Shown in pieces: positions 5,584-15,658 of a stretch of 64,000 nt of DNA (position 1 is the stretch's first letter; the number at the start of each line of letters is the position of its first letter). The notes under the pieces were generated by a model. The model ran no database searches. It saw nothing but the letters and a program-made list of their open reading frames with translations, and was not told the origin of the DNA. Where the stretch lies: NCBI GenBank assembly GCA_964442255.1, contig CAYTYC010000004.1:1416-65415 (forward strand), read 5' to 3'. Both the position numbers and the translations under genes were made by a program. This stretch comes from an uncultured archaeon (GTDB taxonomy: Archaea > Iainarchaeota > Iainarchaeia > Iainarchaeales > 1-14-0-10-31-34).

Positions 5584-5988
5584 TCAGCCCCAGTATTTCA
5601 TTCCCTCTTCAACACTTAACATCCGCCACTTTATTTCAGCGTCTTCCTGGAAAACGTACCTGTCGATTGCCTTGTCCGCAAAGTTTTCGTTCACAAACAG
5701 CGCCCAAAAATGCTTTGAATCGGCTTCCACTCCGTCAATTGATTTCATGAACGCGCCGTAAAGCGATTCACTGTAAATGACATCAAATTTTTCTTTCATT
5801 GCCTGCAGCCCGTTTGAGCCTTTTGGAACCTGCACTGTTTCCTCTTTTACTTCCCCGCCGGCTTCCACTGTCAGCTTTATGGTGACTGTTTCGCCTGAGG
5901 AAGGAACTTCAGTCCCCGGACTTGTACATCCTAACGTCAGTGCGCTTACCGCCATCAACACGAGTAATGCTGACCACTTTGAGTTCAT
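5584..5988 (-). CDS. DUF4430-domain lipoprotein
   Basis: Lipobox signal peptide MNSKWSALLVLMAVSALTLGC. The C-terminal W..FVNE....A.D.Y.F.EDAEI.W pattern matches DUF4430 (W..YVNG....Y.L.DGD.I.W). Confidence 0.6.
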   Translation of the reverse strand: MNSKWSALLVLMAVSALTLGCTSPGTEVPSSGETVTIKLTVEAGGEVKEETVQVPKGSNGLQAMKEKFDVIYSESLYGAFMKSIDGVEADSKHFWALFVNENFADKAIDRYVFQEDAEIKWRMLSVEEGMKYWG

Positions 5989-6641: not shown

Positions 6642-6733
6642 TGCCGGTGGAGGGAATTGAACCCTCGACCTCACGATTTCTCCGCTGGAAAGCGTATGAG
6701 TCGTGCACTCTAACCAGGCTGAGCTACACCGGC
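6642..6733 (-). tRNA. tRNA with anticodon CAU (elongator Met or Ile2) carrying a ~17-nt intron at 37/38
   Basis: Reverse complement reads GCCGGUG-UA-GCUC-AGCCUGGUUA-GAGU-G-CACGA-CUCAUA[CGCUUUCCAGCGGAGAA]A-UCGUG-AGGUC-GAGGG-UUCAAUU-CCCUC-CACCGGC-A. The G1-C72 pair argues against an initiator tRNA. Confidence 0.8.
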
Positions 6734-8541: not shown

Positions 8542-9257
8542 TTCTTCCTGAACAAGTGCAGTGAAAACAAGTCACCGTTGCAGCGAGTGTCCATGCCCTT
8601 AACCAATTCCAATCCCTTAAACAATTCCGCGTACTCTTCTTTTTTCCGGAAAATGCTGTACTTTGAGCCGCTTCTCCCGTTTTCTTCCCAAACGTGTTCG
8701 CAGAGAAAAATGTGCCCTCCTTTTCTGCAGATTTCCTTCATTTTTTTTGCGGGTTTCTTCAGTTCCTTTGGATTCAGTATGTGCAGCAATACAAGGGACT
8801 CGAAAACCAAGTCATATTTTTCAGGGGTTTCAAATTCAGTGAGCTTTCCTTTATGCAGTTCAATGTTTGGGGTGTGAAGAAATCTTTGGCTGGATTTTTC
8901 AAACATTATTTCGCTTGGTTCAATTCCTTCAACGCTGTATGCTTTTTTCACGAGCTCCTGCGTCATTCTTCCAGTCCCAAAACCGAGTTCAAAGACTTCT
9001 TTGTCTTCGTAAAATCCTTTCAGGAAAGAAAAAATTGTTTTCTTTAGTTTCCCGGATTCCAGCACGTTCCGCGTCCGGGAATGCCTTAAGCCCATTACCG
9101 CCTGCAATCCGTTTCTCTTTGCCCTTTCCTCCCAGTGCTTCCTTATTTCCTTTTCGGTCAGGCTTTCCTTTTCTTTCCTGCCGGGCTCAGGGCAAGTGTC
9201 TTTTTCTTTTTCGCTTAAACCGTGCACAGGCATTTTTGGTTCCTTCAAAAAAAGCAA
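8538..9257 (-). CDS. Class I SAM-dependent methyltransferase
   Basis: The VFELGFGTGRMT glycine-rich SAM-binding loop, then LHIL... and a type-11-like fold pattern; 239 aa. Confidence 0.7.
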   Translation of the reverse strand: MLFLKEPKMPVHGLSEKEKDTCPEPGRKEKESLTEKEIRKHWEERAKRNGLQAVMGLRHSRTRNVLESGKLKKTIFSFLKGFYEDKEVFELGFGTGRMTQELVKKAYSVEGIEPSEIMFEKSSQRFLHTPNIELHKGKLTEFETPEKYDLVFESLVLLHILNPKELKKPAKKMKEICRKGGHIFLCEHVWEENGRSGSKYSIFRKKEEYAELFKGLELVKGMDTRCNGDLFSLHLFRKN

Positions 9258-9290
9258 GCCTCTGGCGGGAGTCGAACCCGCTTTTGGCTA
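9257..9290 (-). pseudogene. tRNA 3'-half fragment (T-arm plus acceptor 3' strand), no matching 5' half nearby
   Basis: Reverse complement reads ..UAGCCAAAAGCGGGUUCGACUCCCGCCAGAGGC-U. The acceptor matches tRNA-Thr(UGU) at 1139 and the T-arm resembles tRNA-Thr(GGU) at 11084. Confidence 0.5.
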
Positions 9291-9344: not shown

Positions 9345-9950
9345 ATGAAATACTGTGCCTTGATTGGATTGCTTTTTGTTGCTGTTTTGGCTAGCGGATG
9401 CAGCCAGCTTGAGCCCGTAAATTATCCGGTAGCGCAAGGCGTAAAGGTTGACGTTCAAAGCCCTCATCCTTATTCAAACGGGAAAAGCGGCAAAAGCATT
9501 GAAACAATTGTTTGGTCGCATACTTTAAAGCACCCTGGCGCCTCCTCCTTAAAACTGCACTTCAACAGGCTGGATGTTGCAGGGGAGTTAAACGTACCTG
9601 TAGTTTATGAAACAATCAATATTCCTTGTCCGCCTGAAAGTTCCCCGGAGGCAACCGAAGGAGTGCCGAGCGCCGGGGAATTAGTGTACTGCGGAGAGAA
9701 AACAGTAACAAAAGAATTTACGTTGCAGGAAATATTCATTAAAAACTACATCAATGGAGATTTTTTAATGGTAAGAGACTCACAAAACAATATCTTGGAT
9801 ATACTATTTGAGCAGCCGCCTGGAGCTGGCTTTTCCAAAACTTACGATGGTGTAGATGTGGTAGTATTGGAGCTTTACGCAGATGCCTCTGAAAACGCTT
9901 ATGGCGTACATGTGGATGAGTATTTTTATGGATTTGAACATACTGGCTGA
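9345..9950 (+). CDS. Secreted lipoprotein, hypothetical
   Basis: MKYCALIGLLFVAVLASGC lipobox signal peptide. An alternative in-frame ATG lies at 9333. The gene is bracketed by 17-bp direct repeats. Confidence 0.6.
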   Translation: MKYCALIGLLFVAVLASGCSQLEPVNYPVAQGVKVDVQSPHPYSNGKSGKSIETIVWSHTLKHPGASSLKLHFNRLDVAGELNVPVVYETINIPCPPESSPEATEGVPSAGELVYCGEKTVTKEFTLQEIFIKNYINGDFLMVRDSQNNILDILFEQPPGAGFSKTYDGVDVVVLELYADASENAYGVHVDEYFYGFEHTG

Positions 9951-10026
9951 TTCACGGCCATTTAATCTTCTTTGACTGCTTTTTCAGAAAATTAAGGGCA
10001 GGGCAAAAAAATGCAAGCCTCTGGCG

Positions 10027-10044
10027 GGAATTCACAGGAAATCT
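10027..10044 (-). repeat. Second copy of the tRNA 3'-end fragment (gcaagcctctggcggga), a direct repeat of 9254..9270
   Basis: 17/17 nt identical to 9254-9270. The downstream sequence diverges (attcaca versus gtcgaacc). Confidence 0.6.
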
Positions 10045-10089
10045 GCCCCCTTTCCAGCTGATTATAAAGGCTAAAACCGGTATTTTTGC

Positions 10090-11121
10090 GTGAATGATGC
10101 GAGAGTTGAGTTTAGGGACAACGACATTAAGAGGCAGTTTTTTGCTGAATTAAAGGAAGCCGCCAAGGCAAAAAGCTGGAAAAAGCTGGCAAACTGTTTT
10201 GGGGTCAGCCTGAAGACTTTTCAGAGCTACTTGTATGGGGGCTTCACGGTTCCAGGAAATCTCTTCAGTCGATTTATTGAAAATTTCCCGGAAGAAAAAA
10301 AGCGTTTTTATTCAGATAATGTTAATTTAAAAGATAAAAATTGGGGGGCAGTTTTGGGCGGCAAAAGAAACTATCAGCTGCACCCGGAAATTTATGAAAA
10401 AGGCAGAAAAATTGCGGCACTTAGGCGCAAAGGAAAAGAAGAAACTTTTGACTTTGATGTTCCGCTTTCAGAGGATTTGTGTGAATTTATCGGCGCATTT
10501 ATCGGCGACGGGTTTACTAATAGATATGGCCGCCATTATTGGACAGAGTTAACAGGGGACATAAATCTTGATAAAGAATATCTGACAAATGTTCTTGCAA
10601 GAAACGTGTTTTCTTTGCTTGGGGTAAATTCAACTTCAAGGCCGAATAGCGGCAATAATGCTCTAAGGCTGATTTTTCACTCAAAATTTTTGTTTAAGCT
10701 TTTAACCGAGCGTTTCAAATTTCCCGCAGGAGTGAAATGTTATACCGTAAAAATTCCTGAAGAGATAATTAATGCAGGTGGTCCTCTATTGTATGCGACA
10801 ATTAGGGGAATATTTGATACTGATGGTTGCGTTTTTTTCAGCCAAAGAAAAGTCTACAGAAAACCTTATCCAAGGGTTACGTTTCAAACGGCAAGCGAGT
10901 CACTGCATTCACAAGTGAAAGAAATTCTAAGCAAAGAGTTCAGCCTGTATTCATACAAAAACAGGGAAAAGAAGAAATTTGCTGTAGATGTTTATGGCCA
11001 CAACCAGCTTAAAAAGTGGCTTCGTTTGATAGGGTTTTCTAATAAAAGGCATCTTGATAGGTTAAACAGGTTTCAAGATGCTAAGCCCTGGGCGGGGATC
11101 GAACCCGCGACCTCATGCTAG
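10090..11121 (+). CDS. Free-standing LAGLIDADG homing endonuclease (two-motif, single-chain type)
   Basis: Motif 1 is FIGAFIGDGF and motif 2 is IRGIFDTDGCV; 343 aa. The 3' end overlaps the tRNA-Thr(GGU) gene on the opposite strand by ~37 nt. Confidence 0.8.
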   Translation: MNDARVEFRDNDIKRQFFAELKEAAKAKSWKKLANCFGVSLKTFQSYLYGGFTVPGNLFSRFIENFPEEKKRFYSDNVNLKDKNWGAVLGGKRNYQLHPEIYEKGRKIAALRRKGKEETFDFDVPLSEDLCEFIGAFIGDGFTNRYGRHYWTELTGDINLDKEYLTNVLARNVFSLLGVNSTSRPNSGNNALRLIFHSKFLFKLLTERFKFPAGVKCYTVKIPEEIINAGGPLLYATIRGIFDTDGCVFFSQRKVYRKPYPRVTFQTASESLHSQVKEILSKEFSLYSYKNREKKKFAVDVYGHNQLKKWLRLIGFSNKRHLDRLNRFQDAKPWAGIEPATSC

Positions 11122-11172
11122 TTGTCCTCATTAGATACCAAGCATGTATTGCTACCACTAAACTACCAGGGC
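11084..11172 (-). tRNA. tRNA-Thr (anticodon GGU) with a 16-nt intron at 37/38
   Basis: Reverse complement reads GCCCUGG-UA-GUUU-..-CAUGC-UUGGUA[UCUAAUGAGGACAACU]A-GCAUG-AGGUC-GCGGG-UUCGAUC-CCCGC-CCAGGGC-U. Discriminator is U73. Confidence 0.75.
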
Positions 11173-11201: not shown

Positions 11202-11387
11202 TTAAAAGCAGTCGGCACAGAGTTTTTTTCCTAAATTTTTTGAGGCATTGAGAATTTCAATTCCAAGCAGCTCTTTTCTTTCGCTAAAGTCAACTATGCT
11301 GTCACCAAATTCTTTACTGGCATGGTATTTCCCTTTTTTTGCCTTAATATACATCGCGTCAGCCGATTTATCGTAAGTCACTTTCAT
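11202..11387 (-). CDS. DUF2283-family small protein
   Basis: MKVTYDKSADAMYIK...IVDFSERKELLGIEILNAS matches the DUF2283 pattern (YD.eaDalYi...D...G.l.GIEil.as); 61 aa. Confidence 0.6.
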   Translation of the reverse strand: MKVTYDKSADAMYIKAKKGKYHASKEFGDSIVDFSERKELLGIEILNASKNLGKKLCADCF

Positions 11388-12655
11388 TTGCCTGCGCCAA
11401 CGATTTCCTTCAATTTCTCCAGTTCACTGAATTTTACCTCGAATTCCTTTCTTTTTTCCATGTCCTTTACCGTGAGAACAGATTTTTCCAGTTCTTTTTC
11501 CCCAATGAAAGCAACAAAGGGAAAGCCTTGTTTTAAGGCAAATTCCAGGCTTTTTCCCACGCTTCCTGCCTTTAAATCCAGTTCAGCAGGAACCCCCGCC
11601 CTGCTGCGGATTCTTTGGAGCATTTCCAGGGCTTTTAAGGCAGTTTTCTCCCCAATAGGCACCAAATAAATGCCTTTTTTGGGCTTTAAAGCCAGTTTTT
11701 CCCCCATTAACCCGCAGATTCTTTCCACGCCATAGCTTATGCCCACAGCCTCTTCCGGCCTTCCCCCATACAATTCAATAAGCTTATCGTACCTGCCTCC
11801 TCCGCCCACGCTTTGGCCTTCCCCCACTTTGACCTCAAAAACCGTTCCAGTATAATATTCCAGCCCGCGTGCTATACTCAAATCAAACTCTGCTTGCTTC
11901 TCCAAGCCCGCGGCCTTCAAATATTCCAGCAACTCTTTCACTTCCTTTAATCCCTTTGAATTCACCTTTTTTTCCTTGAACTCTTTCTCGATTTCCCCCA
12001 AGGCTTTTCCGTTCATCCAGCCCAAAATGCTTGAATCAATTTTCTTTTTTTTCAGCTCTTCCCTGACTCCTTTCACCCCAATTTTTTCCAGCTTGTCCAG
12101 GCTCCGCAAACAATCTACAACCTGCGCTTTTTTCACCCCGTTGCAGAGCGCAAGCTCTTCCAAAAGCTTTCTGTTGTTCAGCCTGACTTTTGCTTTCAGC
12201 CCCAGGCGCCTGAAAACTTCAATTGTTGCGCTTATGCATTCCGTTTCCGCAAGCATTGAGCCTGTTCCCGTAATGTCAATGTCCGCCTGTGTAAACTCGC
12301 GGTACCTTCCCTTCCCGGGTCGGTCGTACCTGTAAACCGTTCCAATGCAGTATCTTTTAAACGGCCTTGGAAGCTGCGGGTTGGAAGCCATTACCCTCCC
12401 AAGCGGAACAGTGAAATCAAACCTTAACCCTAACTCTCTTCCGCTTTGGTCCTTAAAGCAGTAGATTTCTTTCCTTATTTCTTCTCCGCCTGCACTCTTT
12501 GCGCTCAACAGCTTAAAGTCTTCTACAACCGGAGTCTGCCAGGGAAGAAAGCCGTACAATTCAAACACCTGCCTGCACGTGTCTTCAATGAACTGCTTTT
12601 TCACCATTTCCTCCGGAAGGTAATCCCGCATTCCGCGAACAGTCTGGAACTTCAT
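11384..12655 (-). CDS. hisS: Histidine--tRNA ligase (class II aaRS)
   Basis: The GMRDYLPEE HisRS signature, class II motif 2 (TVYRYDRPGKGRYREFTQ) and a C-terminal anticodon-binding domain; 423 aa. The tRNA-His gene is immediately adjacent. Confidence 0.85.
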   Translation of the reverse strand: MKFQTVRGMRDYLPEEMVKKQFIEDTCRQVFELYGFLPWQTPVVEDFKLLSAKSAGGEEIRKEIYCFKDQSGRELGLRFDFTVPLGRVMASNPQLPRPFKRYCIGTVYRYDRPGKGRYREFTQADIDITGTGSMLAETECISATIEVFRRLGLKAKVRLNNRKLLEELALCNGVKKAQVVDCLRSLDKLEKIGVKGVREELKKKKIDSSILGWMNGKALGEIEKEFKEKKVNSKGLKEVKELLEYLKAAGLEKQAEFDLSIARGLEYYTGTVFEVKVGEGQSVGGGGRYDKLIELYGGRPEEAVGISYGVERICGLMGEKLALKPKKGIYLVPIGEKTALKALEMLQRIRSRAGVPAELDLKAGSVGKSLEFALKQGFPFVAFIGEKELEKSVLTVKDMEKRKEFEVKFSELEKLKEIVGAGK

Positions 12656-12675
12656 TTTCTCTCACCTGCTTTTAG

Positions 12676-12748
12676 GGCCGTGGGGGGGAGTCGAACCCCC
12701 GTCTTAGGATCCACAATCCCATATCCTGACCGCTGGACGACCACAGCC
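12676..12748 (-). tRNA. tRNA-His (anticodon GUG) with a genomically encoded G-1
   Basis: Reverse complement reads G(-1)-GCUGUGG-UC-GUCC-AGCGGUCA-GGAU-A-UGGGA-UUGUGGA-UCCUA-AGAC-GGGGG-UUCGACU-CCCCC-CCACGGC-C. G-1 pairs with C73, which is the tRNA-His hallmark. Confidence 0.85.
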
Positions 12749-15471: not shown

Positions 15472-15543
15472 CATATTTATGGGGGATTCGACTGAAAGGA
15501 GAATCCCTCGACGTATCCTGGCGTAAACCGACAGTGGCGGTTT
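15472..15543. repeat. Conserved two-hairpin element (copy 2), immediately 3' of tRNA-Leu
   Basis: gcatatttatg-GGGGATTC(N11)GAATCCC-tcGACGTATcctggcGTAAACCGACAGTGGCGGTTTgc. Compare 3979-4052. Confidence 0.7.
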
Positions 15544-15658
15544 GCAGGGGGGAGGATTCGAACCCCCGAAGGCACTAAGCCACAGCGCCTAATCCCAATC
15601 AAACCCGTAGGTTACGATTGTCTGAACGCTGCTCGTTTGACCGCTTCGATACCCCTGC
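15543..15658 (-). tRNA. tRNA-Leu (anticodon CAG) with a ~32-nt intron and a long variable arm
   Basis: Reverse complement reads GCAGGGG-UA-UCG-AAGCGGUCAAA-CGA-G-CAGCG-UUCAGA[C..intron..]G-CGCUG-(UGGCUUAGUGCCUUCG variable arm)-GGGGG-UUCGAAU-CCUCC-CCCCUGC-A. A73 is the Leu discriminator. Confidence 0.75.

Follow-up and report, generated by a model that had tools for sequence, protein, structure and literature searches.

What does a free-standing homing endonuclease gene do with its 3′ end inside a tRNA gene? This question is raised by a locus on contig CAYTYC010000004.1 of an uncultured archaeon of the Iainarchaeales. Here, "the window" denotes the whole stretch of 64,000 nucleotides (nt) that was analysed (contig positions 1,416 to 65,415), and all coordinates refer to it unless another locus is named. 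The host has a Diapherotrites/Iainarchaeota-type genome, i.e., it belongs to DPANN, a superphylum of small-genome archaea. At 10090 to 11121, an open reading frame (ORF) for a LAGLIDADG enzyme converges with a tRNA-Thr(GGU) gene and ends within it. Our favoured answer, which we hold to be reasonably probable, is that this ORF belongs to a free-standing, tRNA-gene-targeting LAGLIDADG homing endonuclease cassette that, in DPANN archaea, resides at the 3′ flank of tRNA-Thr genes. The tRNA linkage of the whole family, together with the tRNA fragments left behind, suggests a mobile element aimed at tRNA genes that has not been described before. The features that carry the argument are the following.

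10090..11121, + strand: free-standing LAGLIDADG homing endonuclease gene, 343 amino acids (aa), GTG start, TAG stop (ORF list, Pfam, homologues, AlphaFold2 (AF2) model)
10120..10317, + strand: N-terminal five-helix helix-turn-helix (HTH) domain, aa 11-76, Xre/HTH_19-like (AF2 model, Pfam match of homologue P0074)
10465..11076, + strand: double LAGLIDADG core, aa 126-329 (motifs, homologue alignment, structure matches)
11077..11118, + strand: non-conserved C-terminal tail, read-through into the antisense tRNA (alignment, predicted local distance difference test, pLDDT)
11084..11121, both strands: convergent 38-nt overlap of the ORF 3′ end with the 3′ part of the tRNA (ORF and tRNA coordinates)
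11084..11172, - strand: tRNA-Thr(GGU), anticodon at 11137-11139 (Rfam tRNA, 51.1 bits)
11120..11135, - strand: 16-nt tRNA intron between positions 37 and 38, the canonical archaeal position (Rfam alignment)
10030..10089, + strand: leader conserved across the convergent clade (alignment A2, 11 loci)
10005..10029, - strand: fragment F2, last 14 nt of a native-type tRNA-Thr (TCCCGCCAGAGGCT) with T-rich trailer (direct repeat D12, comparison with locus L061)
9247..9281, - strand: fragment F1, 25 nt of a native-type tRNA-Thr (T-arm and acceptor 3′ strand) with T-rich trailer (direct repeat, Rfam, comparison with L061)

The enzyme and the tRNA gene in which it ends

A preliminary description of the locus, made from the sequence alone, had named a free-standing enzyme with two LAGLIDADG motifs and proposed a Pfam assignment as a check. 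Both motifs are confirmed, and the sole Pfam match of the 343-aa protein is LAGLIDADG_3 (30.9 bits, cut-off 22.5). Motif 1 (FIGAFIGDGF) carries the catalytic D140 (10507-10509) and motif 2 (IRGIFDTDGCV) the catalytic D245 (10822-10824); in the homologue alignment, each of the two is retained in 119/120 sequences. According to the AF2 model (pLDDT 92.5) and Foldseek, the predicted fold is a pseudo-dimeric alpha-beta-beta-alpha-beta-beta-alpha arrangement, with a Foldseek probability of 1.00 to I-Tsp061I, I-DmoI, I-AniI and I-SceI. The C-terminal 200 residues superpose on I-Tsp061I with a TM-score of 0.77 and on I-DmoI with about 0.72 (Foldseek, target-normalised). A profile of 75 homologues compared with solved structures finds the VMA/PI-PfuI intein endonuclease domains, I-Tsp061I and I-DmoI, the best sequence-profile matches being archaeal intein endonuclease domains (E 3e-9 to 2e-6). 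The ratio of nonsynonymous to synonymous changes (dN/dS) is 0.10-0.23 between the closest homologue pairs, and the gene, its HTH domain included, is by this measure under purifying selection. Judged from motifs, model and dN/dS, the window enzyme looks active.

Ahead of the core, the AF2 model places helices at residues 11-24, 30-36, 41-48, 56-63 and 68-76. The respective region of homologue P0074, aligned to aa 11-76, passes Pfam HTH_19 (E 4e-7), and the family is therefore taken to carry an N-terminal Xre-type HTH domain in front of its nuclease core. In the Pfam scan of seven N-terminal sequences, only P0074 reaches HTH_19, and the window protein itself has no match there. By its modelled structure, the domain is probably an accessory DNA-binding domain. 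Many family members consist of the core only (about 210 aa, e.g., P0289, P0293, P0304) and lack the HTH domain, and one (P0082, locus L014) shows an apparent clean internal deletion of residues ~9-120 with the first eight residues kept.

The ORF might have been a piece of a larger intein-containing host gene, which the preliminary description had named as the finding that would overturn it. This is not the case, since an in-frame TAA (10072-10074) lies upstream of the GTG start and the homologues begin at the same conserved N-terminus. The Pfam scan of the 343-aa protein finds no Hint/intein domain, no Rfam intron family matches anywhere in the window, and the ORF lies outside the 16-nt intron of the adjoining tRNA. 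An intein or intron origin is thus ruled out by the upstream stop, the conserved N-terminus and LAGLIDADG_3 as the only domain.

The tRNA is a tRNA-Thr(GGU) with an intron at the canonical position, because the Rfam alignment places GGU at positions 34-36 and 16 extra nt between 37 and 38 (18 nt replace 2); the earlier identification of both tRNA and intron thus holds. If drawn manually, the fold accommodates a relaxed bulge-helix-bulge, with two 3-nt bulges, UA|U and CU|A, on either side of the helix UUG(G)/(A)CAA. ARAGORN miscalls the gene as tRNA-Ser(gct), in its default run and in intron mode alike. As initially noted, the ORF end is antisense to the 3′ part of this tRNA, and its TAG stop straddles the junction between intron and exon 2. 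Comparable overlaps of 19-90 nt occur in 14 related loci. Since family conservation ends at residue ~327 and pLDDT drops below 50 for residues 333-343, the tRNA-reading tail is an accident of where the first stop codon falls.

A family tied to tRNA genes

More than 300 full-length relatives (38-53% identity) are found in DPANN archaea, and a profile search yields 526 cluster representatives at E<=1e-30. Their protein ends already point at tRNA genes: in 50/117 database homologues, the C-terminal peptide is a tRNA T-arm translated in antisense, and all three frames occur (...GIEPATS, ...DSNPRP, ...ETRTRDL), and many further homologues end in ...IASVAQ or ...IAPMAQW, i.e., the sense translation of the tRNA-Thr 5′ end.

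For 51 genome loci, tRNAs were sought with Rfam and with ARAGORN in intron mode, and some sequences were inspected manually. A tRNA-Thr lies within 0-114 nt of the endonuclease gene in 38/39 evaluable archaeal loci. Among the tRNA-Thr calls that ARAGORN makes in 451 kb, 31/33 touch the gene, where chance would give about 0.002 per locus. As a negative control, a profile scan provided 14 distant viral LAGLIDADG_3 relatives (24-33% identity), none of which has a tRNA within 3 kb; the linkage is therefore specific to the family and no artefact of the method. A single-protein scan found no viral carriers.

In a neighbour-joining tree of the nuclease core, from which the clades were defined, each clade is tied to its own tRNA and its own geometry.

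Type A, the window and 14 loci (Iainarchaeota/Micrarchaeota): tRNA-Thr(GGU), twice UGU; convergent, stop codon 19-90 nt inside the tRNA
Type B, 10 loci (Woese-/Pace-/Nanoarchaeota): tRNA-Thr(GGU), once CGU; gene directly upstream of the tRNA
Type C, 13 loci: tRNA-Thr(CGU); gene 3-114 nt downstream of the tRNA
Outer clade, mostly bacteria of the candidate phyla radiation (CPR): tRNA-Ser(CGA/GCU), two on tRNA-Leu; gene directly upstream of the tRNA

The tightest junctions are those of four divergent type-B genomes (L011 6978/6979, L012 2065/2066, L015 6993/6994, L017 7002/7003), where the last conserved codon abuts position +1 of a same-strand tRNA-Thr(GGU) with zero spacer. The last conserved residue is here the I/L of ...RHLxRI, and the ORF stop is the TAG, TAA or TGA of the D-arm. 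Read from sequence, such a junction implies either that gene and tRNA are co-transcribed or that the tRNA promoter lies within the coding sequence, and the type-B endonuclease mRNA would possibly be cut by RNase P.

In the outer clade, five loci from Patescibacteria/CPR (L040, L043, L044, L046, L050; 24-30% identity) have the gene directly upstream of tRNA-Ser(CGA) and a divergent tRNA-Glu(UUC) at 110-265 nt on its other side, a layout common to Kaiserbacteria, Paceibacterota and Saccharibacteria. The two loci on tRNA-Leu (L048, L051) are archaeal.

Displaced tRNA ends, empty sites and a proposed mechanism

If the cassette inserts at tRNA genes, the question is what became of the tRNA that was there before. 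Upstream of the gene, the preliminary description had seen two direct-repeat fragments of a tRNA 3′ end, and these are real. F1 is the antisense of GCGGGTTCGACTCCCGCCAGAGGCT at 9257-9281 followed by its trailer, here an A-run at 9247-9256, while F2 comprises the antisense of TCCCGCCAGAGGCT at 10016-10029 and a trailer at 10005-10015. Both are identical at 23/24 nt (repeat family D12), for which we estimate by hand, i.e., without a tool, a chance expectation of about 1e-5 such repeat pairs in 7.5 kb. Rfam recognises the T-arm of F1. As nothing but the T-arm scores, F1 was rejected as the 3′ half of a split tRNA or as a degenerate full tRNA.

The source of the fragments becomes visible in L061, the nearest relative of the window by its histidyl-tRNA synthetase (HisRS; 66% identity). 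The 3′ end of the L061 tRNA-Thr(GGU), again TCCCGCCAGAGGCT, is identical to F2 at 14/14 positions and to F1 at 23/25, and L061 has no endonuclease gene. The window's linked tRNA matches F1 at 20/25 only, and its acceptor stem (GCCCUGG/CCAGGGC) is unlike that of the native-type fragments; the native-type acceptor recurs in the window's tRNA-Thr(UGU) at 1138-1210. This mismatch to the native-type fragment hints, at the sequence level, that the linked tRNA was imported. Because the L061 tRNA-Thr 3′ end is identical to the window fragment, we conclude that a native tRNA was probably replaced by an incoming unit of tRNA and endonuclease gene.

Similar scars are found in related loci. In L032, the order is a full tRNA-Thr(CGU), the gene, and then a 3′ fragment of positions ~25-73, with 38 nt aligned at 92% identity and an acceptor and T-stem that differ from those of the full tRNA; the layout of L037 resembles it. 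L009, L008 and L023 hold fragments that run from the T-arm to the 3′ end, and in L041, from the tRNA-Ser clade, the first 22 nt of the tRNA are repeated upstream of the gene at 100% identity. An antisense tRNA 3′ fragment of 14-24 nt lies directly beyond the leader in 7/11 type-A loci (alignment A2), and the type-A fragments are preceded by an A-run, i.e., the T-rich trailer of the displaced tRNA. As in the window, there are two fragment copies in L023 (about 5860-5960), which suggests that insertion took place repeatedly at the same tRNA end. In no locus examined does the fragment's acceptor equal that of the linked full tRNA. No single cleavage site emerges from the scar breakpoints, which lie at ~25 in L032, at 49-58 in the window, L008 and L009, and at 22 in L041.

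Next to the scars, the gene order of type A provides a frame for presence and absence. It reads tRNA-His, HisRS, tRNA-Thr(GGU), endonuclease gene, variable genes, RpiA, tRNA-Met. HisRS adjoins tRNA-Thr in 12 related endonuclease-bearing loci, and tRNA-His adjoins HisRS wherever the contigs reach that far. In the window, the upstream anchor is laid out as follows.

11202..12747, - strand: syntenic anchor upstream of tRNA-Thr, with tRNA-His (12676-12747), HisRS (11384-12655) and a DUF2283 gene (11202-11387)

The comparison with related genomes that had been proposed for the insertion was made via HisRS homologues and their contigs, and it did return loci that lack the endonuclease gene at the same gene order. 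L056, L057 and L059 retain HisRS - tRNA-Thr(GGU) - ... - RpiA without the gene. In L061, HisRS, tRNA-Thr(GGU), a T-run and a lipoprotein-like gene follow each other, and the short contig ends before RpiA. At the HisRS - tRNA-Thr(GGU) site, the gene is thus present in 12 genomes and absent in these four, all of them distant relatives. The preliminary description had further proposed a rearrangement hotspot at tRNA genes. Its endonuclease link stands, given the L061 3′-end match and the recurrent layout of tRNA, gene and fragment; it needs refining in that the locus represents not so much a general hotspot as one member of a large family whose clades are each bound to a single tRNA isoacceptor.

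L005 (JAFCBY010000003.1), which carries the gene, and L056 were tried as a pair of occupied and empty site. Their tRNAs are identical, but HisRS agrees at 69% of nt only and the other genes differ, such that the insertion boundaries are unreadable. Within the tRNA genes (L005 3800-3891, L056 4780-4872), the 16-nt intron differs at one base, an unexpected conservation at 69% HisRS nt identity. L005 is deposited as 'Candidatus Falkowbacteria bacterium', and the contig has an archaeal-type intron-bearing tRNA-Thr together with Iainarchaeota-like HisRS and endonuclease genes; an error of binning or labelling is probable. The same may hold for L022 ('Thaumarchaeota') and L027/L028 ('Methanosarcinales'). 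When metagenome contigs were scanned for the F1/F2 core as an exact pattern, no empty site of the window species was returned: of four matches, three were chance matches in bacterial coding sequence and one was a tRNA-Thr(CGU) with the same 3′ end (L053).

Between F2 and the start codon lies the leader. Alignment A2, which covers 125 nt upstream of 11 type-A genes, shows it as a conserved stretch of ~75 nt with a box CAG(C/G)GGAAAT, a TATA-like TTTAAAG and the start codon. The window version contains the box CACAGGAAATC (10033-10043), a TATA-like ATTATAAAG (10061-10069) and the in-frame TAA. In many homologues, the same stretch is called as an in-frame extension of 20-25 aa (MNSGN...GFK...SxM). 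Since the TAA closes this extension in the window, the internal TATA-like element probably serves the GTG start there. The leader box, TTCA(C/G)(A/C)GGAA, is partly palindromic, and the HTH domain could use it as an operator.

While architecture, conservation and presence/absence are taken from tool results, the steps of the following mechanism are what we infer. The settled unit would consist of the intron-bearing tRNA-Thr(GGU), the opposite-strand endonuclease gene that ends inside it and the ~60-nt conserved leader, and it would have taken the place of the tRNA-Thr(GGU) that natively comes after HisRS in this lineage. F2 would be the remnant of that native tRNA (its last 14 nt and T-rich trailer). 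F1 would be an older, outer scar of the same kind and would mark, with the lipoprotein-like gene next to it, an earlier event at the same tRNA end, perhaps an integrase-like one, perhaps a previous round of this process. For the insertion itself, we propose a cut by the enzyme in a cassette-free tRNA-Thr gene, with the HTH domain probably lengthening the recognition site. The break would be repaired from a cassette-bearing copy, for which the conserved tRNA would provide the homology arm on one side, while the other side would be closed via a short tRNA-derived fragment or by end joining. The result would always be the order full tRNA, endonuclease gene, tRNA fragment. Insertion would be cheap and persistent, because the host retains a working tRNA-Thr. 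Finally, a TATA box may be supplied by the A/T-rich run from the displaced tRNA's trailer, which is found ~25 nt ahead of the leader.

Going further, the ~1.1-kb unit of gene, leader and short tRNA-derived segment could be a minimal recombinase-free integrative element. It would leave by recombination between the tRNA end and the fragment copy and re-enter at nuclease-cut tRNA-Thr genes, using its tRNA-derived part as a portable homology arm (i.e., a nuclease-based analogue of attP and integrase), the reversed trailer as a TATA box and an HTH-dependent bipartite site for immunity; DPANN and CPR would share this distinct way of moving, with separate lineages for Thr, Ser and Leu tRNA genes. In this full form, we regard the idea as speculative and rather improbable.

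Mobility, residence and rival explanations

Several observations weigh against a mobile homing cassette. The pairwise identities of HisRS and endonuclease correlate moderately (r 0.56, 28 non-independent pairs), and synteny of the locus is kept throughout the clade; by these sequence comparisons, the cassette seems to be inherited mostly vertically, with losses, at the sampled depth. A homing gene that is purely selfish does not usually stay intact for long. No strain-level pair with and without the gene was found, the empty sites being in distant relatives (compare the HisRS nt identity of L005 and L056). Between these two, the tRNA-Thr(GGU) exons are identical, and the occupied allele keeps an intact tRNA. 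A target wholly inside the tRNA would hence be cut in the cassette's own allele. The window copy, moreover, has Ser at codon 251 (10840-10842), six residues past the second catalytic Asp, where 117/120 relatives have a near-invariant Asp and no other of the 120 has Ser; by this substitution, it might be weakened or impaired. As regards co-transfer of tRNA and gene, all tRNA pairs are 62-77% similar, which is uninformative.

Given the identical exons, the recognition site of a homing enzyme must reach past the tRNA or be bipartite, possibly via the HTH domain; the alternatives are a tight regulation of the enzyme or no homing enzyme at all. Any protection of the occupied allele must come from the disrupted context of tRNA and trailer or from a bipartite site. 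Mobility is supported by the catalytic residues, the empty syntenic sites, the scars (some of them fresh-looking), the varied geometries and tRNAs and the discrete cassette end. Long residence is supported by the HisRS correlation, the purifying selection and the want of a strain-level pair. Both are compatible, since a site-specific homing gene always lands at the same site and recombination within populations can keep the gene intact.

The long retention under purifying selection, HTH domain included, would also suit a domesticated, WhiA-like LAGLIDADG/HTH protein that has become a host DNA-binding factor and regulates, e.g., the tRNA-Thr/HisRS region or the transcription of tRNA genes. It would have stayed beside its tRNA because this is where it acts, with the fragments as old insertion relics. 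Such a role would agree with the syntenic position and the divergence that correlates with HisRS, and the conserved leader box would be a possible operator; in addition, Foldseek also matches WhiA in RNA polymerase complexes and one homologue is labelled WhiA by the Joint Genome Institute (JGI). WhiA combines, like the window protein, a LAGLIDADG fold with an HTH domain, but it has lost the catalytic residues, which LAGLIDADG maturases lack as well, and its HTH domain is C-terminal. The window protein has an N-terminal HTH domain and none of the WhiA Pfam domains (WhiA_N, LAGLIDADG_WhiA, HTH_WhiA), and members of its family keep both catalytic Asp (119/120). Neither do the absence of the gene from syntenic loci of related genomes and the fresh-looking scars (22 nt at 100% in L041, the 38-nt alignment at 92% in L032) speak for a settled regulator, and three geometries with three tRNA amino-acid classes fit one regulatory job poorly. 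We thus consider domestication unlikely, though a serious rival. That the gene lies beside a tRNA by chance in a compact genome, with a frame open by chance and fragments that are chance matches, would explain why the tail is unconserved, predicted to be disordered and part of an overlap without evident function. It is already refuted by the family statistics, i.e., adjacency in 38/39 archaeal loci against the chance rate given above, and by fragments that match a real native tRNA end and repeat each other at 23/24 nt; we give it practically no credence.

Direct repeats of a tRNA 3′ end that flank inserted DNA are the classic signature of tRNA-targeting integrases. On this view, an integrase-type integrative element would have attached at the 3′ end of tRNA-Thr, and the locus would be its cargo or what is left of it, with the LAGLIDADG gene as a passenger and the repeats as attL/attR cores. 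As in integrase-driven elements at tRNA 3′ ends, the insert lies between a complete tRNA and a direct repeat of the tRNA 3′ end, and the 24-nt repeats include tRNA 3′ end and trailer. For the pair of F1 and F2 around the lipoprotein-like gene, this may well be the explanation. For the endonuclease gene we regard it as very improbable. No integrase (tyrosine or serine recombinase) is among the genes between 8538 and 12655 (methyltransferase, lipoprotein, LAGLIDADG gene, DUF2283, HisRS), the block from the full tRNA to F2 measures only ~1.1 kb with the nuclease as its sole gene, and the same gene abuts a tRNA in dozens of unrelated genomes with conserved junctions.

Known systems, significance and further features of the window

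With the archaeal rRNA-intron-encoded, monomeric I-Tsp061I and I-DmoI, the window enzyme shares the double fold and an acidic residue that ends each LAGLIDADG helix. It differs in that its gene lies outside an intron and against a tRNA rather than within an rRNA gene, and it has an extra N-terminal HTH region of ~125 aa; sequence identity is ~15%. The archaeal intein endonucleases (Thermococcus/Pyrococcus VMA, PI-PfuI) belong to the same Pfam family, LAGLIDADG_3, and are the best profile matches, whereas the window ORF has no Hint/splicing blocks and is bounded by an in-frame stop upstream and the tRNA downstream. Mitochondrial mobile ORFs at gene 3′ ends (Allomyces atp6-ORF360, glomeromycotan mORFs) arrive with a replacement 3′ part and leave the displaced native 3′ end as a downstream fragment. 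There, protein-coding organelle genes with in-frame fusions are concerned, while here it is a tRNA gene of cellular archaea and bacteria, in either orientation. SegB of phage T4 is a free-standing GIY-YIG homing endonuclease that is encoded between tRNA genes and has its target in the tRNA gene region (PMC2988022). It is thus similar as a free-standing endonuclease gene beside tRNA genes, but belongs to another nuclease family and a phage genome, with neither duplicated tRNA fragments nor an overlap with a tRNA.

A 2024 survey of CPR LAGLIDADG proteins notes, for archaea and CPR, LAGLIDADG_3 proteins whose N-terminal region is unassigned, and never mentions tRNA (PMC11270868). Full-text searches of open-access papers found no description of LAGLIDADG genes that flank tRNA genes in DPANN/CPR.

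Transfer RNA genes are among the most conserved genomic sequences and classic landing sites of integrase-driven elements. If our favoured reading of a tRNA-targeting homing cassette is true, a meganuclease family for tRNA genes that brings its own replacement tRNA would be a second, nuclease-based way to exploit them, set in the least-understood small-genome archaea and bacteria. It would offer a concrete agent for the old idea that archaeal tRNA introns, split tRNAs and odd tRNA genes were shaped by tRNA-targeting mobile elements. It would also account for a recurrent annotation oddity, i.e., proteins that end in ...GIEPATS, ...DSNPRP or ...IASVAQ, and would provide hundreds of natural LAGLIDADG and HTH scaffolds with probable tRNA-gene targets for specificity studies. 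Likewise, it would be a warning that tRNA-Thr, tRNA-Ser and tRNA-Leu genes in DPANN/CPR genomes can be xenologous replacements.

One further gene belongs to the immediate surroundings of the cassette.

9345..9950, + strand: lipoprotein-like gene with signal peptide ...LASGC, between F1 and F2 (no Pfam match)

It is flanked by the 24-nt repeat copies and is, in the proposed sequence of events, passenger DNA from the earlier event at the same tRNA end.

Elsewhere in the window, a second intron-bearing tRNA lies at 6642-6733 (- strand; Rfam 60.6 bits). Its anticodon is CAU, 19 nt replace 2 after position 37, and ARAGORN misses it by default and calls it Ser(aga) in intron mode. At 15543-15610 (- strand), ARAGORN reports a tRNA-Ala(ggc) and, in intron mode, a Pyl(cta) at 15543-15658. 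Rfam has no tRNA there at gathering score, and the call may be a tRNA with a non-canonical intron or false. Half of the window (26596-59529, - strand) is taken up by four giant ORFs in a row (2453, 2434, 2620 and 2731 aa) and a further one of 624 aa, which probably encode large surface proteins typical of DPANN genomes.

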